A stretch of 20,000 nucleotides of DNA from an uncultured virus (IMG/VR IMGVR_UViG_3300031992_003405) (Duplodnaviria; Heunggongvirae; Uroviricota; Caudoviricetes). Position numbers and translations under genes: made by a program. The DNA lies in IMG/VR virus record IMGVR_UViG_3300031992_003405, one strand, 5' to 3'. Below the pieces are notes generated by a model. The model saw only the letters and a list, made by a program, of their open reading frames with translations, made no database searches and was not told the origin of the DNA. How positions within the stretch are numbered: position 1 is the first letter of the stretch; each line of letters begins with the position of its first letter. This document shows, in pieces, positions 1 to 20,000 of this stretch.

Positions 1-3000
1 ATACAAAATTAAAGTATACAAGATTGAAATAAATTTCTATATAAGATTAGAATAAAATTGTTGAAATCACTTGTAAAGGCATATCCAGGTATGCCAGGAA
101 TAGAAACATTAGCCGAAGGATCTTGTACGATACAAAAAATATTATTTCTATATCGTGAAAATTTATCTATCTTTAACAGAAATCGTTATCGCTAATAAAT
201 ATTTATATTTATAAAGATACAATTAAATTTAATAAATAAATTATATTTAATGATTTTTAATATATTTAAAAAACAAAAAATTTATTTAAGAATTTGGAAC
301 AAAACCGACAGTCTCTGCACTAGCTTTGTAGAACCAGCCATCGTGTCCATAATCTCCAATATTAGTATATACACAGGTAAATTGTTCGCTAAGTCTCAAT
401 CCATTTAAAGGCTCTAAGTAACCTATATTCCAGTTCCTATATAGAGATTTTTTCTCATAATGAACAAAATGCAATAAAATTGAATTATAATAAAATTTAA
501 GTATACAATATTGGAACAAAACCGACAGAACCGGCTGCAACATAATTCTCAGATTGTATAGGAAATAAAGAAGGAAATGTGTTTCTCGTTCCTAGAAAAG
601 TAAAACAAATTGTTGCATACTCATAGTTAATTGTCAGAAATCTTTTCTACCAATAAATATTTATAAAGATATAATTAGATTTAATAAATAAATTATATTT
701 AATCATTTTTAATAATATTTATTATTTTACAAAATTTGGAACAAAACCGAGAGAATGATGACACCACGAACATGCACGATTACCGAAACGATCACTAGCG
801 AATGATATTAATTCAAATCTATTTGCTGTCTCTAGACTCGGAGATCTTTCCCATTAATAAATGAAATATATTTAAATACAATAAAATTGAATTCTAATAA
901 AATTTAAATATACAAAATTAAATATACAAGATTGACGTATACAAGATTGGAACAAAACTGTGATTATGATAAGTCCAAGCATTACCACAACTACCGAGCG
1001 GGTTACCATCACCCCCACCGCATACGTAAATATACCTCTCTTTGGCCCAGCCGCTGGTTGCAGATTTTCCCGGAAATCTTTCTTATTAATAGATTGAGTA
1101 GATTTAAATATAATGATACAAAATTAAAATATACAAGATTAAAATATACAAGATCGGAACAAAACCGAAACTAGCAGACATTGCCATTATTGATGACACT
1201 CGATCTGCATTGAACATGATTCCCTCAAAGTCGACATTATAGCTCATCTTATATCCTAAATTCGCATTGTACATCGACTGGCTCTTGCTCGGAGATTTTT
1301 CCTACCAATGAATTAAAATATATTTAAATGTAATGATAAAATTGAGTGCTAAGTTTTTTTAGAATAAAATCGTGAGAATAAGACGCCTCATAAGAATCCC
1401 AGGGAGAATCTTCTGCATCAGCAGCAGCCTTGCCTCTACGTCCTAGGCAAATACCTTGAGTACGTTTCTCTACTTCCAGAGATCTTTCCCACCAATGAAT
1501 TAGATATATTTTAATATAATAATAAAATTTAATTATATAAGATTAAAGTATACACGATTGAAGTAAACTTCTAATAGAATTTAAATATACAAAATTGAAA
1601 TAGAACCGTCACTAAAATAAAAATGCTCAGTACTCGCAGTAGTATCATAATCATATGACGGATCGTATGTCCATCTCGGACCAGCATCGCCCACACTAGT
1701 ACATTGGTCTATAGTCCGTGCATTTAGAGATCTTTCTTGTCAATAAATTAGATATATTTAAATACAATAAAATTAAATTTTAATAAAATTTAAATATACA
1801 AGATTGGAACAACAAAACCACTACTGCAATGGGGATGAAAACTTCCATATTCCCAAGATTCTGTCATACTAGTTATATAGATAAAAAAATGCTTAAAATT
1901 ATTATAAATACCATTAATTGGATCACGTATAACCAGAAATCTTTTCTATTAAAAGATTAAGTGACTTTAAATATAATGATACAAAATTTAAATATACAAG
2001 ATTGAAGTAAACTTCTAATAAAATTTGGAAAAAAATGGTATTATCATCATTATCACAATGGCCTGAGTTGCCTGACCAAGGAGGTAAACCAATAACTTGC
2101 AGCCTTTTAGGTAGTCGTACATTCACATTAACGTATGGGCTTGGAGATCTTTTTGACTAATATTAATATAAAATTAAAAAGTTTTAATAAAATATAAATA
2201 TATAAAATTTAAGTATACAAGATTGAAATAAATTACTATATAAAATTAAATATACAAAATTTGGAACAAAACCGCAACAATAATGTGCCCTCACACACCC
2301 AGGTAAACAAAATGGATATTCAAAGGAAGGTGCTTGTCGCGTCATTACACACCAGTCTTCATAACTGCTGTAGCCCTGATCATATCTTATTGGAACACGC
2401 GGAGATCTTTCCCACCAATGAACTAGATATATTTAAATATAATATAATGAAATTAAATTCTAAAAAAATTTAAATATACAAAATTGAAGTAAACTCCTAT
2501 ATAAAATATAAATATATAAAATTGGAACAAAACCGACATCTCTCCATACATCACACAAATGTCCCCATGTATCTTTTGGCCATTTCGTGCTACCATAATC
2601 CAAGATACCATCTTCTAACACAAACATAATTGTAGTGTCGTACTTAGGAGTCGGAGATCTTTCCCACTAATGAACTAAATATAATTAAATAACAATAAAA
2701 TTGAATTATATAAGATTAAATATATAAAATTTAAGTATACAAAATTGTGAACAAAATTGAGACTAATATATGCATAATTCATGTGCGAAGCGACGGGAAA
2801 TTTAGAAGGCCATACGCCAACTTCTCCTAGCATTAAAAACGTAATATCTCCCGAGCTAAATGTAGGGCATGGAGATCTTTTTCATTAATAAACTAAATAT
2901 ATTTAAACATAATAATAGAATTCAATTCTAAAAAAAATTGAAACAAAATCGAAAGAAAAAATTGCGAAATCACCACAACTTGACTCAGCGAAAACCTCAT

Positions 3001-6000
3001 ACCTGTGCGCCTCACACAAATAATTTTTATACTGATCACCGCTATTAACTCCCCGATTTCCATCATATCTTGTCGGAAATCTTTTTTTACCAATAAATTA
3101 GATATATTAAAATGTAATAATAAAATTCAATTCTAATATAATCGAAATATACAAAATTAGAATATATAGAATTGAAGTAAATTTCTATATAAGATTAAGT
3201 ATACGAGATTGAAGTAAACTTCTAATAAAATTTGGAACAAAACCGAGACTATGCAATTTATGATCTATGTGATAGATCCACTTGACTTCGCCAGAAAATT
3301 CTTGATTACCAGTCAAGCCAAATTGTCCAATGTTAGAATCAGAGTGCGTGTGATTCGGAGATCTTTCCTAATAATGAACTAAATATAACTAAAGATAATA
3401 AAATTAAATTTTATTAAAATTTAAATATACAAGATTTAAGTATATAAGATAGGAACAAAACCATGGACCATCGAACACCAGTTCCCTCCTTCCATAAAAT
3501 TTACCTGAAAATCGACATAGCTCGCATTCGGAGGTATTGAATACCCGGAAAGCTTATACGAAAATCTTTCCTACTAATAAATTAAATATAACTAAATGTA
3601 ATAAAATTTGGAATAAAACTGTGAATTTTATGACAACGCCAGTTACTATGTTCGTCTCCAGGAAAGCGGTTCTCAATATACGTACCAACGACGTATAAAT
3701 ACTGCATCGGAAACGACGCATCTAATTCTCCAGCTATTAGAAATCTTTTTTATTAATAAATCTAGCATATTTAAATACAATTTTATTATTATATTTAAAA
3801 TCTTTTTTAGAACAAAAACGATAGCAACAAAAGTATGTATACAGTCGCGCAGCCCAGGCTTATTGCTTTTACCTTGTGTAATGGCATATTAACCTTCGTA
3901 AAGCGAGGAGATTTGCAAAAATTTTTCCTACTAATATTAATATATATTAAGATAAAATTAACAAATATTTAATAAAATATAAATATACAAAATTTGGAAT
4001 AAAACCGCTTGGCCTATCAGCATACAATGAGCTTGCGTTAGTCCAACCGCCGTACTCCCACGGGTGCAAAAAACATGGTTTATTATGTGACTGACTCTCT
4101 TTACTCGGAGATCTTTCTCATCAATGAACTAAATATAACTAAAGATAATAAAATTTAAATATATAAAATTTGGAACAAAACCATAAACATCGATGGTATC
4201 AATTGCAGTCGCAAAATAACGCCCTGTAGTACCACGATTACTTGAGTAAGTAAAACGCTTATAAGGTTGCATATCTAAAGAGTCATTTGCGACATCTGGA
4301 TATACGCCCAGAGATCTTTCCTTCATCAATAAATTAAATATAACTAAATATAACGAAATACAATGAAATTGAATTTTAAAAATTTAAATATACAATATTG
4401 AAATAAACTTCTATACAAGATTAAATATACTAGATTGCAATATGCAAGATTGGAACAAAACCGCTTTTCCAACCCGCAGGGCCATACGGATAACTACAAT
4501 ACAGGTTCACGGCAACGTCAATCTTTCCATCGTTCCTCGTCGCACCTACAACGAAATCAAAACCTATGTCACTCGCCCCGAATTCAGCGACCCAAGCCTT
4601 CGTCGGCGATTTTTTTCATCAATGAATTAAATATATTTAAATGAATTTTAATAAAATTTAGACTATAACCCTCAACACAAGATGCATAAATGTTAATAGC
4701 CCTAGCGAAATCGTTGTAAGAACTGTATCCTACTTCGCAAAATCTTAGACTTGTATCAGCTTTAGATACGTCGACTAATGTTTTCGGAGATCTTTTTTTA
4801 CCAATAAAATATAATTAAATACAATAAAATTCAATTTTAAAAATTTAAATATACAAGATTGAAATAAAACCGTGACATTGATAGCATGCGCCCCCAACGC
4901 TAATTCCACGCTCATAATTCGAACTTAAGCCTCCACCACCGTAATAATACACAAGCAACCACCACATATCTTGCCCGGAACTACCAAGTTCCGGAGAGCT
5001 TTTTCACCAATAAACTAGATATAACTAAAGATAATAAAATTTAGAATAAAACTGAGAATATGACTACATACCTTATACTGTCCGGGACGATAATCTCCTT
5101 CCCACGCATTGCCACTATTTGCGATTGGGATATACATGGTGCCTCGAATATTGTCACCATAATTACAGTCCGGAAATTTTTTACATCAATAAAATATAAT
5201 TAAATACAATAAAATTAAATTTTAAAAAATTTTAATATACAAAATTAGAACAAAATCGACGCCATTATCGGTCCAATTACTCACGGCGTCGAAGATGTCA
5301 CATGCTGAATCTTAACATATAAGACCACTGACTTCATAATGGGTAACGTGTTGTAATTTACTCGGAAATCTTTTCCTATTAATATGAATATATATTAATA
5401 TAAAATTAAAAAATTTTAATAAAATATAAATATACAAAATTAAAGTAAACTTCTATATAAAATTAGAATAAAACCGATATTATTCCACGCATTATCAGCA
5501 TTATCAACCCAGTTTAATAACGATACATTAGGAAAATTTGGCGCTGCATTAAACACCCGACTTCTCACTACAGTACTATTACCAGACCATTGATTCGAAG
5601 ATCTTTCTCATCAATAAATTAAATATAATTAAATTGAATTCTACAAAATTTAAGTATACAAGATTAAAGTAAACTTTTATATAAATTGTAAGTATACAAG
5701 ATTATAACAAAACTGTGAATATTATTTACATAATAACAATCAGGCAAATAATAGTAGTTCTTTAAAGGCGTTTTTATTCCATACTTTTCTAACATACAAA
5801 AAGCATATTCCCAACTACCTACATTTAGAGATATTTCCCGTCAATAAATTAGATATATTATGTAATAATTAAATTAAATTCTAATAGAATTTAAATATAT
5901 AAGATTACAGTATGCAAGATTAAAGTAAATTTCTAATAAAATTTGGAACAAAACCGTTAACACGCTGAATTCCCTCGTAATTAGTGTTTGTCCACCCATA

Positions 6001-9000
6001 CCCATAGGCATGGCCGTACCATGTCAGTAAGCAAAATCCCCAACTGGGGGAAGGGTGATTCGGAGATCTTTCCTGCTAATATATATTAAGATAAAATTAA
6101 AAAATTTTAATAAAATATAAATATACAAAATTTAAAGTATACAAGATTAAAATATATAAGATTGAAGTAAACGTAAACTTCTAATAAAATTTGGAACAAA
6201 ACCGATGTATACATTCGCGTAATAAGAGCCACGCAGACCTGGCTCATTGGTCTTCCCTTGTGGCCCGCAATATTGCCCGACATAGAGTCCGTTTTCCCTC
6301 GGAGATCTTTACCACCAATAAATTAAATATATTAAAATGTAATAATAAAATTCAATTCTAAAAATTTAAATATACAAGATTAAAATAAAACCGTGAATAT
6401 AAATTGCCCTGTGATGTTGACTGGTTACCGGGAAGGTAGAAGGAAAATGGTTTGCTTCACCTAGAACACAATAGCGATTGTATTCTGCGAGCTCGTATCT
6501 TGCCGGAGATCTTTCCCACTAATAAATTAGATGTATTTAAATACAATAAAATTTAATTTTACAAAATTTAAATATACAAAATTGAAGTATACAAGATTAA
6601 AGTAAGCTCCTATATAAAATTAAATATATAAGATTGGAACGAACTCGGCGTTATGTGATGGGATGGTAGTCCATCAATCACTATATATGCCGAATCCTTG
6701 ATTAAATTCTACCGGCACGCACGAAAATCTTTCCTACCAATAAATCTAGTATATTTAAATACAATGATAAAATTTTATTTTACAAAGTTTGGAATAAAAC
6801 AGACATCTTCATCTGCATATATACGATAGGACATACACCTGCCATCTACACATAAAGTACCATAATCCCAAGCATCGATCTCTGGCGCATAACTAGATTC
6901 ATAATATTTTTGTGTTGGAGATCTTTCCCACCAATGAACTAAATATAATAAAAATAAATTATGATAAAATTAAAGTATACAAGATTAAAGTATATAAAAT
7001 TAAAACAAAATCAAGACTATCAATACCGTTTTCTCCATATCCACTTCTTGGGCCATCGCTTGCATACCAAATAGATGTGAAATTACTTAGACCATAATTA
7101 CCATAACTATCTTTATACTTTACCAGAGATCTTTTCTGCTAATAAATTAAATATATTTAAATACAATAATAAAATTGAATTTAAATATATTTAAATATAT
7201 AAGATTAAAGTATATAAAATGAAAGTATACAAGATTGAAATAAACTTCTATATAAAATTAGAACAAAACCAAGATCACAAAAGCTGTCTTCACTATGATC
7301 GCCTGCCACACCAGATTTATGTGTCATGATAGTAGACATTTGTGCATAATATCCCTTGCCTGGATATGACCCACTCACTTTAGTCGGAGATCTTTTCTAT
7401 TAATAAATTAAATATAATTAAATACAATAAAAATTGAATTTTAGCAAAATTTAAGTATACAAGATTGAAGTAAAACTTTTATATAAAATTAAATATACAA
7501 GATTGGAATAAAACCGCGAGTTGTAGTGTGTTGATCGTGAAGATGATCATCAATCGATAGGTTCGATGTACCTACACTATGTAGCTCTGCGCCCCACACT
7601 TGCAGATGGCAATAATGACTCATTGACGAATTGTTAGCCGGAGATCTTTCCCACTAATATTAATATATATTAAGATAAAATTAAAAAATTTTAATAAAAT
7701 ATAAATATACAAGATTGGAATAAACTTCTATATAAAATTAGAACAAAACCGTAAGATAGAAATACTCGGTAATTCGCGTACGCGTATCCTGCCGACACTT
7801 CACTATTATACGCATCAGTACCATATACTTTACAAAACTGTATGGTATAGTTAGCGTTCCGAACTGTCATCGGAGATTTTTCCCACTAATGGACGGAGTA
7901 TAACTAAATGTAATAAAATTCAATTCTAATAGAATTTAAATATACAAGATTAAAACGAGCTTCTAATAAAATTTGGAACAAAACCGTTACTAGCCCACAC
8001 AAAACTAGTCTTGGCAATAACATCGCTAACACTGCCGTACGATACCAGCTGGTAATTAAAGTATCCCACAGATGTAAAACATGGGTTGTTATCCTGAACC
8101 CACGGATTGAGTGACGGAGATCTTTCTCACCAATAAGCTAAATATAACTAAAGATAATAAAATTAAATTATACAAAATTTGGAACAAAACCGGCACAAAG
8201 GACGTCCATCGTATATGACGGTTTCTCAAAGCCAAGTCCAAGGACGTCACCCCTACGATGTAACCAGCACCAGTTACCGTACTTCTGCAACCCCTCGTCC
8301 CAAGTCACTGGCACATGCGGAGATCTTTCCTACCAATAAACTGAGTATAACTAAATACAATAAAATTGAATTTTAACAAAATTTAAATATACAAGATAAA
8401 AGTATATAAAATGAAAATATACAAGATTGAAGTAAATTTCTATATAAAATTAAATATACAAAATCAAAGTATACAAGATTGGAACAAAACCGTAACTACT
8501 ATTTACTACAGCATTACCACTACTGCCGAGCGGATTATTGTCACTACCATCGCTTACGTATTCATCTCTCTCTAAGGGCCATCCTACGTATGCATTATAT
8601 TTACCCGGAAATCTTTCTTATTAATAGATTGAATAGATTTAAATATAATAATACAAAATTAAAATATACAAAATTGAACCAAAGCCGTATGAATCTGTAG
8701 TTCTCCAGATGCCGTTGTCCGTGAGATCAATATCATAATTTTGTATGCCAATAAATTCAATCTAAGTCTTGTATCCCAATGCCGGGCGAATTAGTGCCAT
8801 TCGGGCCCTTATGCAGAGATCTTTCCCACTTATAAACTAAATATATTTAAATGTAATAATAAAATTTAATTCTATAAAATTTATAACAAAACTGAAGCTA
8901 TTGTATGAAAACTGTATCTCATTTTCATATCGACTAAAACCTTGCCTGCCAGTATCAGAAGTAACGGATGCATATCCGTTAATTTCGCATCGCTCACACC

Positions 9001-11131
9001 CAGCGAAAAGTAACCTGAATCTGTCTTCGACGGAGATATTTCCTACTAATAAAATATAACTAGCTAAATACAATAAAATTAAATTTTACAAAATTTAAAT
9101 ATATAAAATTAGAGTATATAAAATTGAAGCAAACTTTTATACAAGATTAGAGTAAACTTCTATATAAAATATAAATATACAAAATTTGGATATATAAAAT
9201 TGGAACAAAACCGTTAGATGTAAAATTGTATTTCCAGTTACCTAAATTGTCTATACCATGACTAATAAGAGCACCACCGTTTCCCGCAATCATTATCACC
9301 ACCCACTGCTCATCATGGTTGTTTTGTACTACAGTCAAAGATCTTTTCCACTAATGTTAATATAGAATTAAAAAATTCTAATAAAATTTAAATATATAAA
9401 ATTAAATATACAAGATCGGAACAAAACTGCCAGACTTATGTACGTTCCATTCATTACTCGTATAGACACCATGTAAGTCGGAAATGCGCAACCCGCCATC
9501 ATCAAGGAGTCTATCCAGAGATTTTTTTCACCAATAAATTAAATATATAAGATTGAAGTAAACTTCTAATAAATTTAGAAAAAAACCGTTACTTCTAAAA
9601 TTGAAAAAATGACTAGCTCCATCATATGTGTTATTCCCATATCCACCTAGTTTACACGTATCTGAATCAGAATCAGCTTCATATTTACTCGAATATCTTT
9701 CCTACCAATAAACTAAGTATAATTAAATGTAATGAAATTGAATTCTACAAAATTTAAATATACAAGATTAGAATAAAACCGTGAGAATAATAATGCTGTT
9801 CATAAGCCGCAGATCCTGAATCTCTAGCACTCGGCCAAGCCCAACTTAAATAAAACCCAGGTACACAGCACCAATTTACATAATTATTCATCTCGGGAGC
9901 CAAAGATCTTTTATAATAATATAGAAATAAAATCGATAGTATCATTAATAAACCAATAGCCAGGATCGCTAAGATGTCGTGCACTGGGCCACGCAGCACT
10001 TATTGTAAAAGCTACACTAATACCAAACCATTGATCACCACCAACTTGAAACGGAAATCTTTTATAGAATTAGATATAATAATTATTCAATTGTTTATTT
10101 TAATATCATATTTATAAATCAATGAATAATAATTATAAAATAATATAATTTAAATTAAATCTTGTTTTATTAAATACATTATTTATTAAAAAATTTTTAA
10201 ATATATAATGTTTTTTAATCAAACCACACGTTCGGTATACATGTAATCCATTACATATTCCCAAACCATTTTCTAATATGAAGTGTGGAGAAATGTCATA
10301 CATATTATTATAATTACTGCCAGAATCCTCCACGTTTTGAATAGAAATCTTTATAATAATTTAAATTATTATATTATTATTTGAAAATAAAACCGTCTAC
10401 AAAAAATACCCAATCATAGTCACTTGCTAAAGCTTGTACTGGTCCTGGCCATAAGTGACTAAGAGTTTTATACAAAACTAGAGCAAAACTCTTGTCACTA
10501 CTATCTCTAGCTAGAAATCTTTATAATATAAATATATAATTAAAAAAATTAATTACTTTTTAATTATATAGTATAATTTTAAAAATTGTTTTAGAACAAA
10601 GCCAAAATTTATTATGCCTGCTGCAAAATCTGACCCATCAAAATAGTATCCATAGCCATATCCTATCCGTTTTAATATACAAAAGTCAACTTGGTAAGTT
10701 TTGTCTAGATGCAGAAATCTTTTCTGTCAATGAATATATATTTTTAATCAATTATTATTATAAAAATTAAAATAAAATCTGAAATAAAATTTAAAATAAA
10801 ACCGTGATCATAAGGCGCCTGATCATGATTGGCAAACGATCCACCGCCACCATTCCATTGTATACCAACTAACCTTACTAACATAAATGTCGTACCTACA
10901 TGTTCTGACATTCTCGGAGATCTTTTTTATTAGTACTATTTATTATATAAAATTATTTTTATAAAATTTAAATATACAAGATTGGAACAAAACTAACATT
11001 GCGCCATACTTCGGTTAAGTGTCCCCAAGTATCTTGCGGCCATTTTCTTGAACCAAAATCATGCAAACCATCAGATAGGGTAAAAAGGCCTTCATTGCGT
11101 GTGTTGCTCAGTTTCGAAATGCTTCTATATA
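1..11131 (-). repeat. Array 1: about 51 silent variable-region cassettes (WERSP-[variable]-GFVP) separated by AT-rich linkers
   Basis: On the + strand each unit has a left anchor resembling ttggaacaaaaccg (e.g. 293, 510, 736, 2261, 2522, 3232, 5943, 6191, 7973, 8179, 8479, 9200, 10982). This is followed by a unique, more GC-rich core of ~75-140 bp and a right anchor resembling cggagatctttcccaccaatgaa (e.g. 839, 1477, 2400, 2652, 4106, 6300, 6504, 8318). Read on the minus strand the anchors encode HWWERSP and GFVPN, the residues flanking the C-terminal segment of the gene at 13013-13165. Period ~150-300 bp. The count is by eye, and the array probably continues past the left edge. Confidence 0.95.
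6186..6319 (-). repeat. Cassette identical to the currently expressed variable region
   Basis: 6186-6310 equals 13031-13155 base for base (125 bp), then one mismatch (a6311 vs c13156), then ccaccaat matches again. Encodes ERSPRENGLYVGQYCGPQGKTNEPGLRGSYYANVYIGFVPNF except for the first base of the E codon. Confidence 0.98.
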
Positions 11132-11167
11132 AAATTAATATATTAATTAGAATTTTTATATAAATTC

Positions 11168-11283
11168 ATAATAAACGCATTTATAATAAACGCATTTATA
11201 ATAAAAATATTTGTTATATCTTCTCATTTGTAATCATTTTCATCTTGTGATTATTTTCATCTCGTAATTATTTTCGCCTCGTG
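11168..11283. repeat. Short tandem repeats at the gene-proximal end of array 1
   Basis: ataataaacgcattt occurs twice plus a partial copy (11168-11205). A ~17-bp unit occurs three times: ttgtaatcattttcatc / ttgtgattattttcatc / tcgtaattattttcgcc (11227-11283). Confidence 0.7.
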
Positions 11284-12427
11284 GCGAAGTATCTAAATTT
11301 GTTCCATATATCTCTAATAATGTCTATATTATTCTCTCATTATTATAACTTAGTCATTTAGAAAATTTATTATATAAAATAATTCTATCATTAATATTAA
11401 AAATTTTTTTCATAGTGCGAAATTACGATATTTTTTATTTTTCATATTATTTCCATTAAAATTTTTGGCGGCGTGGAGTCAAATATTTTTTTTTCTTTTA
11501 TCGATTTTTTTTCTATTAGTATTAATTATTTTTTATTAATATTGATTATTTTTTATTTTATACTATTTTATACTATTCTGCCCCTGTAATTTCATAAAAA
11601 TCTGGGCAAATCTTTTATAAATATCTTTAAATTATATATAAATTTATCTTGTTTATTAAAATTTATAATATTATATCTTTTTTATTCATATATTAAGCTA
11701 AAATGAATGAAATTTACTATTATAAACATTTATATATATATTATAGTTTATATAAACTATTAGGCATATATAAATATATTAATATTTTATTAAATATTTT
11801 TGATTAATTAAATATATTACTTAAAGTAGAAGTACGACAACGTTCGACTTGTATATTAATTTTTTATTTTGCCTTTTATAGTATATAAACTATTTATATT
11901 CATTAATATAGTTAATATATCAATTATATGACAACATCGTTTGTCTAACGACTCAACGAAACTATAAAAACCGTCTTCATACCCATAAATAATTGTCCCT
12001 GCATTAAGTATTTTTTTAATTAGCCAGTTATATTCAAGGATACTTATAATATTAAAAAGTATATTCCATTTTAATGGATAATATTTTAATTAATATATTA
12101 TCCTCTATTATAAACCTTAATTGATACGACGTAGTTCGTAAATATATAAGTTGTCCAGTATATTCCTTTTAGCCATATTTTTAATTAATAAGTGTTTATA
12201 TTATTAATTAATGTATATAATTTCATTTTAGTTGTGCCCTCATAGTTTCACCCCAAACTTGTCTTTATTCCCTCACCCCAATTTGTGTCTTCATAATATA
12301 AAAACTATACGTTCCTACAATACTTTAGAAAATTATACATCATACAAGAGTACTTTATACTTTATACATTATTTTTTCATACTTTATGCTAATAAAAATA
12401 TATTAGACTATTTATATAAATTAAAAT

Positions 12428-12463
12428 AAAAGAGAATATATCAATTAAGATATATTCTCTTTT
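12428..12463. terminator. Perfect inverted repeat, possible bidirectional intrinsic terminator
   Basis: aaaagagaatatatc-aattaa-gatatattctctttt forms a 15-bp perfect stem with A/T tracts at both ends. It lies between the target gene 3' end and array 1. Confidence 0.6.
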
Positions 12464-12570
12464 TTATCTATATTAATTATTTTTATTATTATTGTTATTT
12501 TTTATCAATATATATTTATTATAATTTACTGGCTATTTCTAAGCAGATAAATTATAGGCTATTATAAATA

Positions 12571-12633
12571 TATAAATTTGTTCATTAACGTATAAACTTA
12601 TGTTCATTGACGTATGAATTTACATTCATTGAT
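12571..12633. repeat. Three degenerate ~21-bp direct repeats
   Basis: tataaatttgttcattaacg / tataaacttatgttcattgacg / tatgaatttacattcattgatg. Confidence 0.6.
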
Positions 12634-12651
12634 GGTATTAATTACTTTTAG

Positions 12652-12826
12652 TGTGTTCCAAATCTAGAAGCGGATTAATTTTTATAGCATCTTTCTCTTT
12701 TATAAGAGACTTATGCTCTTATATATTTATTATTAGCGCAATAGCCTAACGCTGTTTAGTTCATAACGTTTTTCAGTATATGAACCTATAATTTTAAAAA
12801 CTATAAGCCTTAATCCGCCGAACATA
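12652..12826. ncRNA. Putative multi-stem structured element of unknown family
   Basis: Nested complementary segments: tgtgttc(12652)/gaacata(12820), gcggattaa(12670)/ttaatccgc(12810), agcat..tctctt(12686-12699)/aagaga..atgct(12704-12717), agcg(12735)/cgct(12750), gttcata(12759)/tatgaac(12779). Confidence 0.4.
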
Positions 12827-12946
12827 TTTTACCAGTTTAACCAGTAAAATAATAGTTCCTTTTTACAACTAATCTAATGATTAATTGCTTGTAAAGTGTC
12901 TAAAATTAGGTTGTATAGATTTGTCCTAATATATGTTATTCTATGA

Positions 12947-12969
12947 TATATTAGCCTAACGCTAATATA
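12947..12969. other. 9-bp hairpin just downstream of the target gene stop codon
   Basis: tatattagc-ctaac-gctaatata, ~45 nt beyond the stop at 13013. The core tagcctaacgct is repeated at 12742-12753. Confidence 0.55.
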
Positions 12970-13012
12970 AATAGTTTATAAGTATACAAGAGTACAAATA
13001 TACTTAATACCT

Positions 13013-13423
13013 TTAATCAGCCACCATTACAAAATTTGGAACAAAACCGATGTATACATTCGCGTAATAAGAGCCACGCAGACCTGGCTCATTGGTCTTC
13101 CCTTGTGGCCCGCAATATTGCCCGACATAGAGTCCGTTTTCCCTCGGAGATCTTTCCCACCAATGAACGGCAGCGCCGAGATTAACTCCAGTAGCACCAG
13201 AAACAGGTGTATTTTTAGCATCAGCACCGCGAATGCGGTATGAAGCTGCGCTATTAGTAGTATAATAAGCATAACGAGCTTGCTTATTCTTTTCATAGCT
13301 ATTTGCATAGCTACGTTCACCGAAAATCTCAAACTCTGCCATTAAGAAAATATAATCGCTAGTATCATTAACATTACTCTCAGTGTCGGTAGCACCGCCC
13401 ACATTATCCGTATATTTTTTGAC
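13013..13423 (-). CDS. 3' part (exon 2, 136 aa) of a DUF6273/C-type-lectin-fold-like variable protein; contains the expressed variable region
   Basis: The frame of the 129-aa ORF extends upstream as VKKYTDNVGGATD.... The motifs KKYTDN..G, DYIFLMAEFEIFG, YANSYE...Q..YAYY, WWERSP and GFVPNF match my recollection of DUF6273-type phage/DGR target proteins. Joins exon 1 in frame as ...SYIKP|VKKYTDN.... Confidence 0.85.
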   Translation of the reverse strand, partial: VKKYTDNVGGATDTESNVNDTSDYIFLMAEFEIFGERSYANSYEKNKQARYAYYTTNSAASYRIRGADAKNTPVSGATGVNLGAAVHWWERSPRENGLYVGQYCGPQGKTNEPGLRGSYYANVYIGFVPNFVMVAD

Positions 13424-13825
13424 CTGATACTATATAAAATTTTCTTTATTTTTTATATTAATAATAATTTTATTTTACAAAATTTATTTAAAATTAATAA
13501 AAAAATATATTAATTTTAGTAAAATTGTTTAGATTAATAAAAACTTTAAATTAATAAAAATATTAGATTAATTCACTGTCCGTATACTTCATAAAATGCT
13601 TATTATTCTTGCATTTTAGCAATATTTATTATATATTATTTATTATATTTTTTTTATAATATTATATTTAATTATTTAATTTTAATACTTATAATAAATT
13701 CCCTTTTCACTATTATTATAATTATTAGTATTTATACTAATTATTTATATTCATCAATATTTAAAAGCTACTATTAAATTTTCACTTTACTATTATTATT
13801 ACTAATATTGCTACTAATACTTATA

Positions 13826-15259
13826 TTAACTAATAATATATTTTCCACGTTTTTGCAATAATTTTATATATTTATATCTACGTTCCAATTTTTTATTATT
13901 ATTTAATTGTTTTAATTGAAAACAGCCATTAGACCGTAAACTATTTATATAATATACTTGTCCTTTATGTTTTACTAAATCATATCTTCTAAAATTATAT
14001 GTTATATAAGGACATTGATTCTTCCGCTTTTTATTATTTTTATATATTTTATCCTTATATATCTTTCTATTATGATTTCTTACTTTTTTCATTAAATATA
14101 CTTTAGTATCGTTATTACTTCTTCGTAAACATTGATTAGCTATTATTCTTGCATCTATATGATGATCTTTTTCTAAATTATTCCTTTCTCGAATTAATTT
14201 AGTTTCATAGCCATATGTCTTTTCTATTTTCAGTTTTACTGATACACCTTTGGCGTCCGAGCATGCTCGGAAACCTACTTCATATCCTAATTTTATTAGT
14301 TCTTTATATATTCTATCCTTAAGCATATTTAATCTCGTATTTTCTTTATATTCTTTTATTTTAAATTTTATTTTTTTATTATTTTTTAGATATTCATGTA
14401 CTTGTTTATGACAATGTTCACATAAAGTAATTAAGTTTTCTGGTACATTAGTGCCGCCTTGAGACTTAGGTTTTATATGATGTACGTGTAATTTTATATT
14501 ATCTTTTTTTAAAATATCTAAAGATTTCTTACATTTTTGACAAGTATAATTATCTCTTTTTCTTACATAAGATTTAATATTTTCTTCATGATATAATAAT
14601 CCTTTTTTATAAGATTTAACCTTATCTATTTGCATATTAAATTGTATTAATTCACTTTTTAAGGATAAATTAGATAGATTATTATTATCAATAATATTAT
14701 TAGTATTAATAATATTATTATTACTTATATTATTACTTATATTATTACTTATATTATTATTCTTTAATTTACAAATATTAAAATTATTATATTCATATCT
14801 TATTTTATCTATATGTACATATTTATTAAAGAATTTAATAATATTAATATAAGTTAATAAGCTAGCTTGCATAGATGGTGGAATCCATCCATCTTTTTGT
14901 TTTCTATATATCTTTTTTCTATTATTCCACCTAGGAGGTCTATATCTTAATCTATTCCTTCTATTACGTCTAGCATTTCTTCTGGCTTCTAGTAATTTAG
15001 GTATATCTGTTCTTTGTTCTAACTGTGCCTCAAAGAGGACACGTTGTTTAGTAGTAATAGAAATACCAATTGTTTTGCCAGGATCAATGCCTATAGTAAC
15101 ATCTTGAAGTTTAGGATCATCGATTTGATAATTGAGTTTAATAGTGAAAGGAAAAAATTTAACGACTTTAGCTAATTTCTTTTTTAATAATATTCTAGCT
15201 TTAGCAGGATGACAAGGCATAAGCCTTGTACCATCTTTATTAAAAACAAAAACTATAAT
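13826..15259 (-). CDS. iscB: IscB RNA-guided endonuclease (IS200/IS605 OMEGA; RRXRR/PLMP, split RuvC and HNH)
   Basis: N-terminus IIVFVFNKDGTRLMPCHPAKARILLKK (PLMP-like); RuvC-I IGIDPG; Arg-rich bridge helix RRNARRNRRNRLRYRPPRWNNR; RuvC-II IRYE; HNH RDNYTCQKC..LHVHHIKPKSQGGTNVPENLITLCEHCH; TYGYETK; RuvC-III HHIDARII. The frame is open upstream of the ATG at 15220. AAGGAG (15272-15267) lies 7 nt before ATT 15259, suggesting a non-ATG start. Confidence 0.92.
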   Translation of the reverse strand: MIVFVFNKDGTRLMPCHPAKARILLKKKLAKVVKFFPFTIKLNYQIDDPKLQDVTIGIDPGKTIGISITTKQRVLFEAQLEQRTDIPKLLEARRNARRNRRNRLRYRPPRWNNRKKIYRKQKDGWIPPSMQASLLTYINIIKFFNKYVHIDKIRYEYNNFNICKLKNNNISNNISNNISNNNIINTNNIIDNNNLSNLSLKSELIQFNMQIDKVKSYKKGLLYHEENIKSYVRKRDNYTCQKCKKSLDILKKDNIKLHVHHIKPKSQGGTNVPENLITLCEHCHKQVHEYLKNNKKIKFKIKEYKENTRLNMLKDRIYKELIKLGYEVGFRACSDAKGVSVKLKIEKTYGYETKLIRERNNLEKDHHIDARIIANQCLRRSNNDTKVYLMKKVRNHNRKIYKDKIYKNNKKRKNQCPYITYNFRRYDLVKHKGQVYYINSLRSNGCFQLKQLNNNKKLERRYKYIKLLQKRGKYIIS

Positions 15260-15369
15260 AATTGCTCTCCTTTATTAAGGATTAAGTTATTATAAATAAT
15301 ATATAAAATGGGATATAACCCAAATTTATAATCAATTACTTATATATATTTTTTATGAATATATATAGT

Positions 15370-15610
15370 TATATAATCTCCCACGCTAAAATTATTCTGA
15401 GTTTAATAATTATATCACTGTTAACCTATAAACTGTTTAAATATAATCCGCAGATTTCTAACTAATAGCTAGGCGCTTTTTTAGCGCATCATTTTAAATA
15501 TAATTTAAAATGAAAATAAAGCTTCAAGCTGGAAGAACACTTAAAGATGCCTATATATTTCAGAATAATGTAGTCTATATTAGTATAGACTAAAGCTGAT
15601 GAATCAATCT
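15370..15610 (-). ncRNA. omegaRNA / HEARO-like RNA scaffold upstream of iscB
   Basis: Minus strand reads cagctttagtctata-ctaa-tatagactacattattctgaaatatataggcatctttaagtgttcttccagcttgaagcttt...ttaaacagtttataggttaacagtg...aaactcagaataattttagcgtgggagatt. This follows the HEARO/omegaRNA motif order as I recall it (AGACTACRTT, ATAGGCA, CCAG..AGCT, TTAAACAG, ACAGTG, GCG.GGGAGA). Long-range pairing ttattctga/tcagaataa (15560-15568 with 15392-15400). Position directly 5' of iscB is as expected. Boundaries approximate. Confidence 0.75.
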
Positions 15611-15657
15611 AAAAATTCTATTGATCTAAAAATTCTATTAATCTAAAAATTTTATTA
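15606..15657. repeat. Three ~17-bp tandem repeats at the 5' edge of the omegaRNA-like scaffold
   Basis: aatctaaaaattctatt / gatctaaaaattctatt / aatctaaaaattttatt. Confidence 0.7.
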
Positions 15658-15871
15658 GTTTAAAAAATTATTTTATTAACTTTTAAATTAATTATTAATA
15701 TTATTGAAAAATAGTTTTATAAAATATTGAAAATTTTATATTAATTAAGCTTTATTATTGAAAAATTATAAAAATAATTATTAAATTTATAATAAAGCAT
15801 AGATTATGTCATTATTATAATTAATAAAATATATTAATTATATTAAATTTTCCATTAATAAATTAATGTAC

Positions 15872-15934
15872 ATTTATTAATCGTTAAATATATATTAATA
15901 AAAAAACATTTTATATTAATATATATTATTGATA
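15872..15934. promoter_or_regulatory. Copy 1 of a ~62-bp direct repeat with an internal inverted repeat
   Basis: atttattaatcgttaaatatatattaata-N14-attaatatatattattgata; near-identical to 16908-16969. Confidence 0.55.
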
Positions 15935-15993
15935 AATTTTATAGAATATATCAATAATTATTATACTTATTAATAAACCCTAATATAAAATTA

Positions 15994-16818
15994 AGGTTTA
16001 ATATAAGACTTCCATGCTGGATCAATAGCGCTATGAAATTGCTTACAAATAAATGTACGCATATATGACATCTTCCAGCCACCAGAGTTACTATTAGTAA
16101 GATTCATACGGAAGCCAGCATCACTACCGGTTAGATATAATCTGTTATCAACAAATGCAATATCACCAGCAACATGTGCATCTGCGTTATCTCTTGTGAC
16201 GCGACGGCTAAGACTGAAATGAATAGAATTCTTACCATTAGTTTCTACAGTCGCATTATGATCAAAGCCGAGAATATATGCGCAGAAATTAGAATTATTT
16301 GAAAAAGTCTTATATCCAACTGTACCATTAAGCTTAATAGCTGCAGTATTACTACCTACACCGCCAGCATAATTAGAATTTTCAGGACCCCAATAGTTCT
16401 TATGTAATCCAGCATTAAGAATTGCTTGAATCTGTGCGGGTGAACATTGAGAAAGAACATGAGGAATGTTAGAAACGCTACCGGTATAAGTGTTAGGACC
16501 AATTGTAACTGTACGAGTCATAGCAGCATAACCATTAGTGGCATCTGCACCTACAGTAATAGTTAATGTTGCTGTAGTTGATGCTTCACTATAGCCGGAA
16601 GTTGTAGAAGTACGTTTAACAACGACTTCCTGATCATTAATAACTTCACAAGTATAATACGTGTTGGGAGTAACACTAGCACTAAGAGTGCCTTTACTTT
16701 CTGTTGAAACCCAGACAAAAACTTCATCATCAAAGTTATTAATATACGAAGGAATTACTGCAATTGAAGGATTCCAGGAAGCACCTGCATCCAAGCCGAT
16801 TACTTTTCCTAAAGCCAT
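15994..16818 (-). CDS. 5' part (exon 1, 275 aa) of the variable protein; T/S/V-rich, probably beta-sandwich N-terminus plus the start of the DUF6273-like domain (putative tail fibre, adhesin or receptor-binding protein)
   Basis: 275-aa ORF with higher GC than its surroundings. Motifs YILGFDHN, IHFSL, FRMNLTNSNSGGWKMSYMRTFIC and AWKSYIKP resemble the N-terminal half of DUF6273-like domains. The stop at 15991-15993 is the first codon of the insertion. Confidence 0.85.
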
Positions 16819-16907
16819 ATTATTTTCTATAATATGTTAATCTTTTTATTTATAAAAAGTATAAAGACTATCTAATTTATTTCATTTTTATTAAAAATAA
16901 TTACTTT

Positions 16908-16969
16908 ATTTATTAGTCGTTAAATATATATTAATATAAAAAAATTTTAATTAATATATATTATTGATA
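16908..16969. promoter_or_regulatory. Copy 2 of the ~62-bp direct repeat, ~90 bp upstream of the target gene start
   Basis: atttattagtcgttaaatatatattaata-N12-attaatatatattattgata; contains the 13-bp inverted repeat aatatatattaat/attaatatatatt. Confidence 0.55.
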
Positions 16970-17516
16970 TATTATTTAATTAATTTTTATAATTATACCA
17001 ATAAATTTTATATTAATGAGGTACTTAATATGAATTTAATAATATTTTTATGATAATATTTTTGTAATAATACCTCTTTTTTATTAATTTACTAGTTAAT
17101 TAGTTAATTAATTAACTAGTATAACAAATTTTATATAAAAATTAGTTTTTATATAGAAACATATTTCTAGTAAATATGTTTATTTTTTCCATTTATTTTA
17201 ATAGTAAATATTTTTAGTATTTTATTATTAAAACATAATAGAACAATAAACGATATTTACATTTTAATAATATATTTAATTTATCATTTTATTTAAAAAG
17301 AATTTTTTCTATAAAAAATGAAAAATTTCAGGGGTTGTTAAAGTAAACGCCAAGTTTTATTAATAAACACCAAACTTTTTTAATAAATTATGAAGTTTTT
17401 TAATCAATATTAAATTATTTATTATGATATAAATATTAATTATTTGTCGCGAAAAGAATTTTAAATATTATATTAAAATGAACAAATATTAATAAAATAT
17501 TTACTAAAATGAACAA

Positions 17517-17969
17517 TTATATTTTTAATTTTTTAATAGTGGTTATATTTATAGATTGAATTGTTGTAATGGCATTAGAAGTATCTTTAATAATTTTTAA
17601 TAATTTATCAAATATTTTACTAGATTCTTCTACGGATTTAAAAACAGTATTACCTTCATTAAGCATTTCGAAAAGAAAGATTACTTCAATTTTGAGATTG
17701 AATAATAATTGATTAGCTTTAGTTAATAGATTTTGTTTTTCTTTGAATTGTTCCATGGATAAGTCTTTAGATAATTTAATATATTCCGATTGAAGGCAAT
17801 AATTAGTAATTTTTTGCATTATATCTAATATATTATTAGTAATAACATATCTATAAGATTTAGGCATATGTCTAATAGTTTTATTAATCATTTTTCTTAA
17901 TTTAAAAGATAATTTAATATAGTCTTTGTCTAGCTGATAAGTTTTTAAGAATAAATCAATTACTTTCAT
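17517..17969 (-). CDS. avd: Avd-like (DGR accessory variability determinant) four-helix-bundle protein, ~150 aa
   Basis: Basic, apparently all-helical protein with the pattern L...I...I..MPKSYRYVI...I.......I......I.......Q...KQ..L.KAN..L..L...V....E, resembling the Avd/four-helix-bundle (F/M)PK..RY.L..I signature. Start placed at ATG 17969 after GAAAGGA; the ORF track starts at 17987. It is adjacent to a gene with a DGR-target-like C-terminus. Confidence 0.62.
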   Translation of the reverse strand: MKVIDLFLKTYQLDKDYIKLSFKLRKMINKTIRHMPKSYRYVITNNILDIMQKITNYCLQSEYIKLSKDLSMEQFKEKQNLLTKANQLLFNLKIEVIFLFEMLNEGNTVFKSVEESSKIFDKLLKIIKDTSNAITTIQSINITTIKKLKI

Positions 17970-18016
17970 TAATATTAATCCTTTCATTTACGTTTTTAAA
18001 TAATTAATAAAAAAAT

Positions 18017-18042
18017 AAAGCATATATATCGATATATGCTTT
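18017..18042. other. 11-bp inverted repeat between the avd-like start and array 2 (terminator or operator)
   Basis: aaagcatatat-atcg-atatatgcttt flanked by A and T tracts. Confidence 0.5.
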
Positions 18043-18079
18043 TTATATTAGAAGAATTTTTCTAGTTAGAATATATATT

Positions 18080-20000
18080 TAAGATCTCAGCAAACTACAG
18101 GTGATGCATTTTATCCGATTCAATGGTGTCGTTTAGCTTATGAAGTTGAAGGTCATTATCATGAGATAGAAGCAGGTGGTGCGTACAATGACTGGAGAAT
18201 ATGCGCTAGTTTCGGTTTTATTCTTTATAAAATTTACAAATTTATTAATAATAATGATCTTCAAATAGATGTGCAAATACGATGAGTCAAAATCATATGT
18301 TATGGTTACATTATGGTTATAAATATGGAGTAACCCAATATAGTGACAATGCATATTGGGTTAACAATTTTATTGTAAATTTTATATTAATTATAATAAT
18401 TTATTAATAAAAATTATCTCCGACGAAGAAAGCTTACTATCTTAAGGGTTATTGTACGATGGGTGATGCTGGTCCGCATCAAACATATGATCCATCTTAT
18501 GATTATGATACATCGGCAATGCTTGACTGGAGTATTGTTGATTACGGTTTTGTTCCAAATTTTATTAATAATTATTTTAAAGGCTTTTTATTAAATTTTT
18601 ATAATTCTAATTAATATTAATTTTTATAAAGATTTCCGTGGAAAGATCTGAGATTTGGAACTGAACCCGTGCAGGCATTTTTAGAACCGCAAGGACATGG
18701 TAATGACGACGTTCCGTTCGTTATCTGGATGTTTGCTTCTATCCACAATTCTGGTTTTGTTCCAAATATATTTTTTTATATTATAAATATATAATTAAAA
18801 AGATCTTTGGATGTATGTTATATATCGGCACATGCACAATGGCATGGTTTTGGTATTGGTTATGGACAAACTAATTTTTATACTCCTGTAAATGATGATT
18901 ATTCTGGTGGAACGAGAGGCGGTTCTTCGATTATTAATTTTGGTTTTATTTTTAATTTTATTAATAACTATTTAAAAACTTTTTATTAAATTTTTATAAT
19001 TCTAATTAATATTAATTTTTATAAAGATCTTTAGCAACATACCCTAATCCAAGTCAATATCCTGCGATAGAGATTGGAGATATAGGCGTACATGCTAGTT
19101 ATGAGCCGAAAAATGACTATGATACAACTAGTATTTTTGAATACAGTATACACAGTAATGATTTTGTTCCAATCTTGTATATTCAATTTTATATACTTCA
19201 ATTTTGTATAAATCTATTAAAAATTAAATTAATATAATACAAATGTTATAAATAATATAAAATCTATTTATTAATAATAAAAGATCTCTGAGAAAAGATG
19301 ATGGTAATATAGAAACTCGATCTACGTCTGGAACTTTAACTCCTAACACTGGTATTAATCATCATGATTATACGATGTATCAAGATAACGATTTCTTTTA
19401 TCACGATTTTATTTTTAATGGATTAAAAAAATATTTTTAATTTTGTATAAAGATTATATTAATTCAATAAATAAGATCTTCGTGTAATTCGCAATATGCT
19501 TACAGTGCTACACGATACTGGTGCAGGCAGTCACATGATATAGCTGATAACTTTGCGATAGCTCGCAAGGGAATTGACGAATATGAGACATCATCTAACG
19601 GTTTTATTCTAATATGTAAATAATAAAACAAATTTTAATTAATACTGAAATTTATTTTAATTCTATAATTAATCTCCGAATCATAACAGCATGGATCTTA
19701 ATATATTTATACCTCCCGTTTCAGCATTAGGTATAGAAGGGCATGATGATACTAGTGCATATGATTGGAAATATTTTCATTATAATGAGTTTCGGTTTTA
19801 TTTATGATAAAATCTAAATATTTTCAAAATATATAGTAAATATTCGTGACAATGATAAAAACATATTATAAAGATCTCTGACTTGGTTGACAAACTGGAT
19901 TGGAATTGCTTTTGGTACGATTGGAGATGCAGGACAGTTTTATAGTTATGATTCATCGCATGATTATGACGTTTCTGCCGTATTTGAGAGTGCTGTATGG
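18080..20000 (+). repeat. Array 2: about 10 variable-region cassettes in inverted orientation, truncated by the window edge
   Basis: Units start with aagatct-like anchors (18081, 18255, 18415, 18628, 18799, 19023, 19281, 19473, 19671, 19871). They end with cggttttgttccaa-like anchors (18213, 18358, 18545, 18752, 18941, 19159, 19404, 19599, 19793). Example translations: SPTKKAYYLKGYCTMGDAGPHQTYDPSYDYDTSAMLDWSIVDYGFVPN and RFPWKDLRFGTEPVQAFLEPQGHGNDDVPFVIWMFASIHNSGFVP. Confidence 0.92.

Follow-up and report, generated by a model that had tools for sequence, protein, structure and literature searches.

Introduction

By what mechanism could a segment of about 100 nt be replaced within a gene using anchors of only about 10 nt? 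This question is raised by a 20,000-nucleotide stretch of DNA from an uncultured tailed virus (IMG/VR record IMGVR_UViG_3300031992_003405; hereafter the window), in which a gene for a DUF6273 protein lies between two arrays of silent cassettes. The protein has a C-type-lectin-type fold, with a variable segment at its C-terminus. Our reading, held with moderate confidence, is that the locus uses silent cassettes to diversify the ligand-binding tip of this protein. It is built on a library of cassettes, the coding integrity of their cores, one exact, anchor-bounded copy of a cassette in the gene, and the finding that close relatives carry unrelated cores in this position. We infer from these that transfer is ongoing and adaptive.

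Organization of the cassette arrays

The window is AT-rich, with 16–35% GC per kb. Bases 13057–20000 are identical (100%) to the first 6944 bases of the 48.6-kb metagenome contig Ga0247610_10000618, which was retrieved by scanning metagenome contigs for the right anchor. All unit counts rest on the window plus 24 kb of this overlapping contig (44.3 kb in total; joint positions are given as window-plus-contig coordinates). One array lies downstream of the gene and the other upstream of it (Table 1). Together they hold approximately 100–117 silent units, of which 50–59 are within the window, in agreement with the roughly 60 startless cassettes in two arrays counted in an initial annotation of the window. 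Array 1 is already running at base 1 and is thus cut off by the window edge, while array 2 extends about 14 kb past the window, to about position 34300 in window-plus-contig coordinates; a relaxed-anchor search finds seven in-frame cores in the part of array 2 within the window.

Each unit consists of an AT-rich spacer of 61–191 nt, a left anchor, a variable core and a right anchor. The left anchor, AAAGATCTCCG, codes for ERSP in the gene and has the consensus ATTGGTGGGAAAGATCTCCG over the units; its near-invariant part is AAARATCT, six of whose eight positions are 97–100% conserved in silent units. The right anchor, GGTTTTGTTCC, codes for GFVPNF together with its AAATTTT extension, and is followed in the units by AAATTTT or AATCTTGTATA. 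The conserved portions of both anchors are short, with cores (AAAGATCT and GGTTTTGTTCC) of about 8–13 nt, and both are present far above chance: with at most one mismatch, GGTTTTGTTCC occurs 27 times (0.17 expected) and the left-anchor sequence AAAGATCTCC 36 times (1.02 expected). A profile search of the 44.3 kb returned 99 left-anchor and 119 right-anchor matches, with only three left and two right matches outside the arrays and the gene. The initial annotation had given the gene as reading HWWERSP and GFVPNF around its variable part, with the same two anchors around every cassette core. This needs a correction, as the two Trp codons show a conservation of only about 50% across the silent units and frequently read TAG or TAA. 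Promoter-like sites are not enriched in the arrays (16 versus 19.4 expected) and, together with these stops, this indicates that the silent units are not expressible in place.

The spacers are modular and rich in indels, and they differ in sequence and length from unit to unit. No conserved base pairs (0) were detected in a search for common RNA structure across 28 spacers. Units of 15 nt, AATCTTGTATAYTTA, recur in the array spacers. GATC was considered as a special nicking site and rejected, since its 145 occurrences, 35 of them inside cores, are not restricted to the anchors.

The stored cores are maintained as coding sequence

The cores of 79 paired silent units from both arrays were analyzed. 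They range from 75 to 141 nt (25–47 aa), with a length divisible by three in 72 and no stop in the anchor frame in 74; both properties are combined in 69, and the other ten units are out of frame or contain a stop. The remaining sense frames are open in 11 cores and one core, and the frames of the opposite strand in 15, 6 and 16; when the cores are shuffled, the anchor frame is open in a mean of 5.3 (maximum 13). Core composition (40% GC, with T-rich third positions) matches the constant part of the gene and not the 23%-GC IscB gene described below, and Asn codons account for 7% of core residues. Since the spacers are rich in indels, neutral decay at the spacer rate would have disrupted the cores, which argues that they are maintained open.

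The cores are almost all mutually unrelated, in line with the initial description of different cores between the same two anchors. Only 12 pairs among 80 units are related at E < 1e-3 and, apart from the pair formed by the donor cassette and the expression site, related pairs share at most 72% identity.

Evidence for cassette transfer into the gene

The expressed core is 96 nt (32 aa) long, RENGLYVGQYCGPQGKTNEPGLRGSYYANVYI, and one cassette of array 1 carries an identical core, as had been noticed in the initial annotation. The run of identity between this donor cassette and the expression site is 125 nt, comprising AAAGATCTCCG, the 96-nt core and GGTTTTGTTCCAAATTTT, and it ends inside both anchors. 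The donor reads TGGTGGTAA where the gene reads TGGTGGGAA, with a stop in place of Glu, and the donor cassette retains a stop codon of its own, situated 12 nt upstream of the core. This duplicate is one instance of non-reciprocal transfer, with the donor kept and a copy at the expression site, and the exact copy is recent.

Comparison with relatives shows that the same site is occupied by different cores. A 1775-bp contig of another metagenome (L077) encodes an uninterrupted 422-aa homologue in which the same anchors enclose another core, of 38 aa; the tail after it is shared, and the downstream flank is 98.5% identical. The two sequences thus differ in the core while sharing tail and flank, so that both anchors bounded the exchange. 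Five database relatives read HWWERSP, core, GF[VI]PNF with unrelated cores, and both motifs are kept in all six clade members, around cores of 32–45 aa. P0123 and P0124 have near-identical constant parts, which differ by one substitution and a two-residue indel over about 130 aligned residues, but their cores, of 39 and 45 aa, are unrelated.

In one silent unit (21574–21681, window-plus-contig, within the region 21574–21740, L023 8518–8690), the tail of the gene (IMTAD, then a stop) is preserved together with about 35 nt of the sequence downstream of the gene. It thus seems that units arise by copying of the expression site. The common spacer resembles the downstream flank of the gene minus about 27–50 nt before the CTTGTATAC motif, a resemblance that hints at how units join the array.

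The tail of another relative, P0121 (FFTLEFYYYI), reads like translated array spacer rather than VMVAD, and exchange by the left anchor alone may, judging from this tail, also occur. A related alternative for the whole locus is site-specific rearrangement at the left anchor only, of the shufflon or Mycoplasma vsa type, in which inversion or deletion would bring the promoter and constant region next to whichever cassette they recombine with. Such a process would explain why two arrays in opposite orientations diverge from the constant region that they flank, and the shortness of the most conserved anchor core (AAARATCT) and the spacer-like tail of P0121 are also in keeping with it. However, conservative recombination would not be expected to leave donor and site as exact duplicates, the comparison with L077 shows both anchors in use, and no recombinase was found in the 44 kb; we consider this alternative improbable.

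It is far less probable still that the arrays are an assembly artefact, with population variants of one variable region set out as a false tandem array. The source is metagenomic, and the contig Ga0247610_10000618 starts within a variable core, at the 125-nt repeat. Against this, the sequence and length of the spacer are particular to each unit, the cores are unrelated sequences rather than variants, the second assembly agrees at 100% over 6944 nt that include the first units of array 2, and L077, from another contig, repeats the arrangement of gene, tail and flank.

The anchors, the spacer motif and the proteins were also searched in species genomes, where nothing related was detected. The same queries in IMG/VR gave only distant or chance matches (L001, and by chance L120 and L121, which have 48–53% GC). 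The candidate P0221, with eight matched stretches, was rejected as an unrelated repeat protein.

Table 1. Features of the locus, in window coordinates
Feature	Position	Strand	Description
Array 1	1..11125	-	Head-to-tail silent cassettes in the orientation of the gene, downstream of it; 43 left and 52 right anchors by profile
Donor cassette	6186..6317	-	Core 6204-6299 identical to the expressed core (13049-13144); BLASTP 100% over 32 aa
Structured non-coding stretch	12660..13015	-	356 nt directly after the stop of the gene; fold z-score -6.22, 0 of 100 shuffles as good
Target gene, second coding piece	13013..13423	-	VKKYTDNVGG...HWWERSP-core-GFVPNFVMVAD, stop; C-terminal half of DUF6273
Expression-site variable segment	13031..13165	-	Right anchor 13031-13048, core 13049-13144, left anchor 13145-13165
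Insertion splitting the target gene	13424..15993	-	2570 nt, after ...SYIKP; absent from L077
IscB-type RNA-guided nuclease gene	13826..15220	-	464 aa; Pfam RRXRR 5.9e-46, HNH 1.8e-11
HEARO/omega-RNA-like element	15371..15604	-	Upstream of IscB; Rfam RF02033 over its full length, 25.6 bits
Target gene, first coding piece	15994..16818	-	275 aa; N-terminal part of uncertain fold and first half of DUF6273
AT-rich insertion	16828..17070	-	About 243 nt between ribosome-binding site and ATG; absent from L077
Avd-like four-helix-bundle gene	17517..17969	-	150 aa if started at the second Met; immediate upstream neighbour of the target gene
Array 2, start	18080..20000	+	Silent cassettes in the orientation opposite to the gene, upstream of it

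The target protein and its expression site

The target gene is present in two coding pieces. The initial annotation had described a single full-length gene, missing the insertion that splits its open reading frame (ORF). The first piece aligns to residues 1–283 of L077 and shares 33–41% identity with DUF6273 proteins of Faecalibacterium phages (tblastn). The second piece matches Pfam DUF6273 (E 6.6e-5), and the junction was placed by alignment to the intact L077 protein, which itself passes the Pfam model with 30.6 bits (cut-off 23.5). The target also matches a PHROG family.

A structure model of the L077 protein is confident over residues 120–375, with the variable segment forming a low-confidence loop (residues 377–404) ahead of the last strand. 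Among solved structures, the best match is to an IgA peptidase (PDB code 9qa6), in its N-terminal region, which bears DUF6273, with a VIA-align Z-score of 11.9. The matches to C-type lectins and variable proteins of diversity-generating retroelements (DGRs) are weaker, with Z-scores of 3–4.4 (TvpA 4.4, TaqVP 3.7, Mtd 3.4), and a Foldseek comparison of the whole target model with the PDB returned nothing at E ≤ 0.001. The portion of a preprint available to us (10.1101/2024.10.15.618418) describes DUF6273 as resembling a C-type lectin and bearing DGR variable regions at its C-terminus. The target is probably a receptor-binding protein.

The structured stretch that follows the gene is 98.5% identical in L077 (BLASTN), although the gene bodies are only about 74% identical. 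It matches no Rfam family; it may act in cis at the expression site or encode a non-coding RNA. A 1.9-kb non-coding gap separates the gene from array 1 and contains short tandem repeats at 12571–12632 and 11164–11275, namely a 22-nt unit, TTCATTGACGTATGAATTTACA, repeated about 2.4 times, and 15-nt and 17-nt units repeated about three times each; these have an iteron- or operator-like look. The AT-rich insertion in front of the start codon has an element of about 90 nt, bearing a palindrome, in common with 15850–15990, at the 5' end of the insertion that splits the gene (84% identity), and a 21-nt part of this element recurs in one spacer class of the arrays.

The Avd-like neighbour and canonical DGR relatives

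The gene directly upstream of the target had been called Avd-like from its sequence, an assignment upheld for the fold and for a weak sequence signal. A protein-language-model search scores 0.92 to an 'Avd-like' cluster, and the NCBIfam Avd model NF033474 matches all three family members weakly (14–15 bits versus a cut-off of 80, E 0.02–0.04). The structure model (pLDDT, predicted local distance difference test, 87.7) gives VIA-align Z-scores of 16.1 to 2gsc, 14.1 to 2rld (an S23-family protein) and 13.0–13.4 to Bordetella-phage Avd, alone or in the DGR ribonucleoprotein (4dwl, 13.2). Since designed helical bundles also reach a Z-score of 13.5, this fold match is not decisive by itself. The protein has no match in Pfam, and none in GenBank phages by tblastn; hhalign detected no similarity between its family and the accessory ORF of a canonical DGR locus, L122 (probability 0.7%). 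Thirteen relatives of the gene were found, two of them on contigs equal in size (4482 and 5651) to those of target-gene relatives, so that the linkage is conserved. The Avd-like protein is the only candidate accessory factor in view.

Nine canonical DGR loci related to the target were identified in IMG/VR. Seven of them have a variable repeat of 124–125 nt and exactly one copy of the template repeat about 830 nt downstream, with 85–90% identity, and the remaining two are cut by the contig end. A reverse transcriptase (RVT_1) is present at one of them, L122. The ends of their variable and template repeats coincide with the anchor positions at the locus described here, so that the diversified segment does occupy the position that the initial annotation had likened to that of DGRs.

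These similarities raise the possibility that the locus is a DGR-descended phage repertoire, in which a new mechanism of templated replacement would copy faithfully, with the assistance of the Avd-like protein, from more than 100 pre-validated, unrelated templates bounded by anchors of about 10 nt, mutagenic copying of a single template having been abandoned; we regard this as unlikely, though worth retaining. If it were true, the arrays would be a stored host-range library. A rival reading, which we rate as rather unlikely, is a multi-template DGR descendant, with the cassettes in the role of alternative template repeats. The RNA of one cassette would be reverse-transcribed by an enzyme encoded elsewhere in the genome, helped by the Avd-like protein, and the cDNA would replace the segment without adenine mutagenesis. 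The adjacent Avd-like gene, with its fold, weak sequence signal and synteny in relatives, and the coincidence of anchors and repeat ends at the seven loci, with RVT_1 at L122, argue for it. Integration of cDNA in DGRs also tolerates short anchors better than homologous recombination does, and the anchors here would suit it better.

Other results argue against a multi-template DGR. No RVT_1 was detected among the ORFs of the 44 kb. An adenine-specific mutagenesis signature was not seen, the donor and the expression site being identical at every adenine, and A is involved in 313 of the 535 mismatches that separate related cassettes, a share near the expectation of about 56% from composition (computed by hand). 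The 7% of Asn codons, the absence of conserved pairs across the 28 spacers and the lack of promoter enrichment point the same way. The initial annotation had proposed that the locus combines a DGR with silent-cassette gene conversion. Its cassette-library part stands, with a DUF6273 cassette library, translatable cores and one exact copy, whereas the combination with a DGR remains conjectural, given the lack of an adenine signature and of a reverse transcriptase or recombinase in the 44 kb. Among the families that it had singled out for profile searches, DUF6273 was found and Avd weakly so, but RVT_1 and tyrosine/serine recombinases were not found among the ORFs of the 44 kb.

An IscB-carrying insertion within the gene

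The insertion that splits the target gene carries an IscB-type nuclease gene and, upstream of it, a HEARO-like element. Its Rfam match does not reach the gathering score (83) and has an E-value that varies with search size, from 0.092 to 0.0033. At 15606–15666, where the guide of an IscB omega RNA would be expected, there are 3.6 copies of a 17-nt unit; the guide of the HEARO-like RNA is presumably the repeat unit immediately upstream of it. An IscB guide aimed at the anchors was considered and rejected, as the 16-nt upstream unit has no good match in the arrays (nine loose matches versus 4.4 expected). A second copy of IscB, at L073 15539–16801 on contig Ga0247610_10000618, shares about 86% DNA identity and is broken into ORFs of 161 and 180 aa, so the element is multi-copy in this genome.

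The ends of the insertion resemble those of an intron and invite comparison with IStrons, which are fusions of a group I intron with an IS200/IS605 element. The preceding exon ends in T, the element ends in TCAG, and a hairpin of 10 bp is predicted at the junction, pairing 15999–15990 with 15984–15975 and placing a U.G pair at the junction itself. An exon-end U paired with G in P1 and a 3' TCAG are given as the termini of group A IStrons in the accessible part of a review (PMC13565253). By that description, the T-ending exon, the U.G hairpin, the TCAG end, an OMEGA-type nuclease and the lack of TnpA are IStron-like (PMC13565253). The element differs in that its nuclease is IscB with a HEARO-like RNA instead of TnpB, that its 5' pentanucleotide is AACCT and not TTGAT, ATTAT or TTTAT, and that no group I core is matched in Rfam. 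A group I intron or ribozyme was sought in the insertion at E up to 10 without a match; a core split by the ORF or very rich in AT could escape such a search. The insertion could thus be an IscB-carrying intron-transposon, a combination that the accessible part of the review does not mention (PMC13565253). The first-half ORFs of three further relatives, 47–64% identical to L077, terminate at this very residue. Splicing of the element would leave the target gene functional; if it does not splice, this copy is dead.

The state of the gene bears on a further alternative, that of an inactive relic, in which the arrays would be leftovers of duplications or captured alleles, no switching would take place and the gene would be a pseudogene here. 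In favour of this, the gene is interrupted by one insertion and its translation start by another, ten of the 79 units are out of frame or contain a stop, and the units closest to the gene have degenerate anchors. A relic is nevertheless hard to reconcile with 69 of 79 units that are still open and in frame although the cores have diverged to saturation, with the recency of the 125-nt exact copy, or with the intactness of both gene halves. The ends of the insertion are also intron-like, and ORFs stop at the same junction in four lineages with intact first halves. The probability that we assign to a relic is small.

Genomic context

Array 2 is followed by several genes. One resembles homing endonucleases and has relatives in phages of Lactococcus (125 kb), Prevotella and Dickeya; the others include a pair of ImmA-like genes, genes for proteins of repeated helix-turn-helix modules and the second, broken IscB. 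The module proteins are two adjacent proteins at L073 17929–19451, built from repeated excisionase/MerR-type helix-turn-helix modules of about 55 aa with the consensus TITVNFNGKDITHTYNEW...; a recurring DNA motif, for example the AATCTTGTATAYTTA units of the spacers, might be what they bind. The sequencing runs that contain the region are from sheep and goat gut metagenomes, and eight of ten hold a fifth or less of the sampled words. The carrier is probably a large AT-rich phage of the ruminant gut.

Proposed mechanism and its significance

According to silent-cassette diversification, one expression site flanked by two divergent arrays would draw on about 100 or more promoterless, startless alternative tips of 25–47 aa. 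A stored segment would be copied non-reciprocally into the gene, with the donor retained, and would replace everything from the left anchor (ERSP) to the right anchor (GFVPNF), each copy yielding a wholly different binding surface. Anchor cores of about 8–13 nt are short for RecA-type recombination, so a dedicated transfer factor is likely, for which the Avd-like neighbour would be the sole candidate in view.

Several observations weigh against such a mechanism. Scans of the ORFs of the 44 kb with Pfam and PHROG models found no reverse transcriptase (RVT_1) and no tyrosine or serine recombinase, nor did these 44 kb yield a nuclease directed at the anchors. Only a single donor-to-site copy is observed. 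When the cores of the relatives were compared with the library of window and contig, no donor emerged, the best match being 50% over 18 aa (E 8e-4); presumably each lineage has its own library. The target gene is split by the 2570-nt insertion and its ribosome-binding site is separated from the ATG by a second one, so that the target may be inactive in this genome. Finally, the window assembly and the metagenome contig possibly stem from the same sample and would then not be independent, and the start of that contig coincides with the 125-nt repeat in the variable core.

If the cassettes are indeed transferred, phages or their hosts would vary a receptor-binding surface from a large stored set of complete alternative loops, in contrast to the known routes of point hypermutation, as in DGRs, and a handful of invertible segments. 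The locus would link the cassettes of antigenic variation with the lectin-fold targets of DGRs, and it provides about 100 natural loop designs that a single scaffold tolerates. A full-text literature search, whose coverage excludes subscription journals, did not turn up any cassette library described for a DUF6273 or lectin-fold protein. Nor was a description found there of a binding protein being changed by stored, unrelated tip cassettes.

Comparison with known systems

The closest relatives by protein family are the DGRs that act on DUF6273 or C-type-lectin-fold phage proteins (Mtd of BPP-1 and the tentaclins of gut phages). They share the domain family and, putatively, an Avd-type neighbour with the present locus, and their variable segment is likewise C-terminal, between WWxRS and GFxPxF. 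However, the canonical relatives have a single template, 85–90% identical to the variable repeat, and a reverse transcriptase, whereas the locus here has about 100 unrelated templates and a variable segment length, with no reverse transcriptase in the 44 kb and no adenine signature.

Multiple-inversion systems also place alternative C-terminal segments beside a constant head, with short sites in coding sequence and segments in both orientations. The R64 shufflon (PilV), the tail-fibre G and C segments of phages Mu and P1, and Mycoplasma pulmonis vsa are conservative, recombinase-driven and offer few alternatives. Here the donor is duplicated, both anchors are used, no recombinase was found and the alternatives are two orders of magnitude more numerous. 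The arrays also differ from integrons, as the 28 spacers have no consensus structure that could correspond to attC sites, no integrase was detected among the ORFs of the 44 kb, and the cassettes are gene fragments, not genes.

Silent partial copies are used in Neisseria pilE/pilS, Treponema tprK, Anaplasma msp2 and Mycoplasma synoviae vlhA. These gene-conversion systems, like Borrelia vlsE/vls, combine one expression site with many promoterless partial copies, and short shared repeats bound the exchange while the donor is kept, as at this locus. In the available portions of two articles, the vls silent array is described as adjacent to the expression site and partly inverted, as it is here (PMC2632889, PMC11499132), with cassettes about 90% identical to the expression site (PMC11499132). 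The cassettes described here, of 75–141 nt, are instead mutually unrelated and of unequal length; they are not homologous variants recombined into mosaics, and the whole segment is replaced. The locus further differs from those systems in its very short anchors, in its 100 or more cassettes, and in that its target is a lectin-fold binding protein of a probable phage rather than a bacterial surface antigen.

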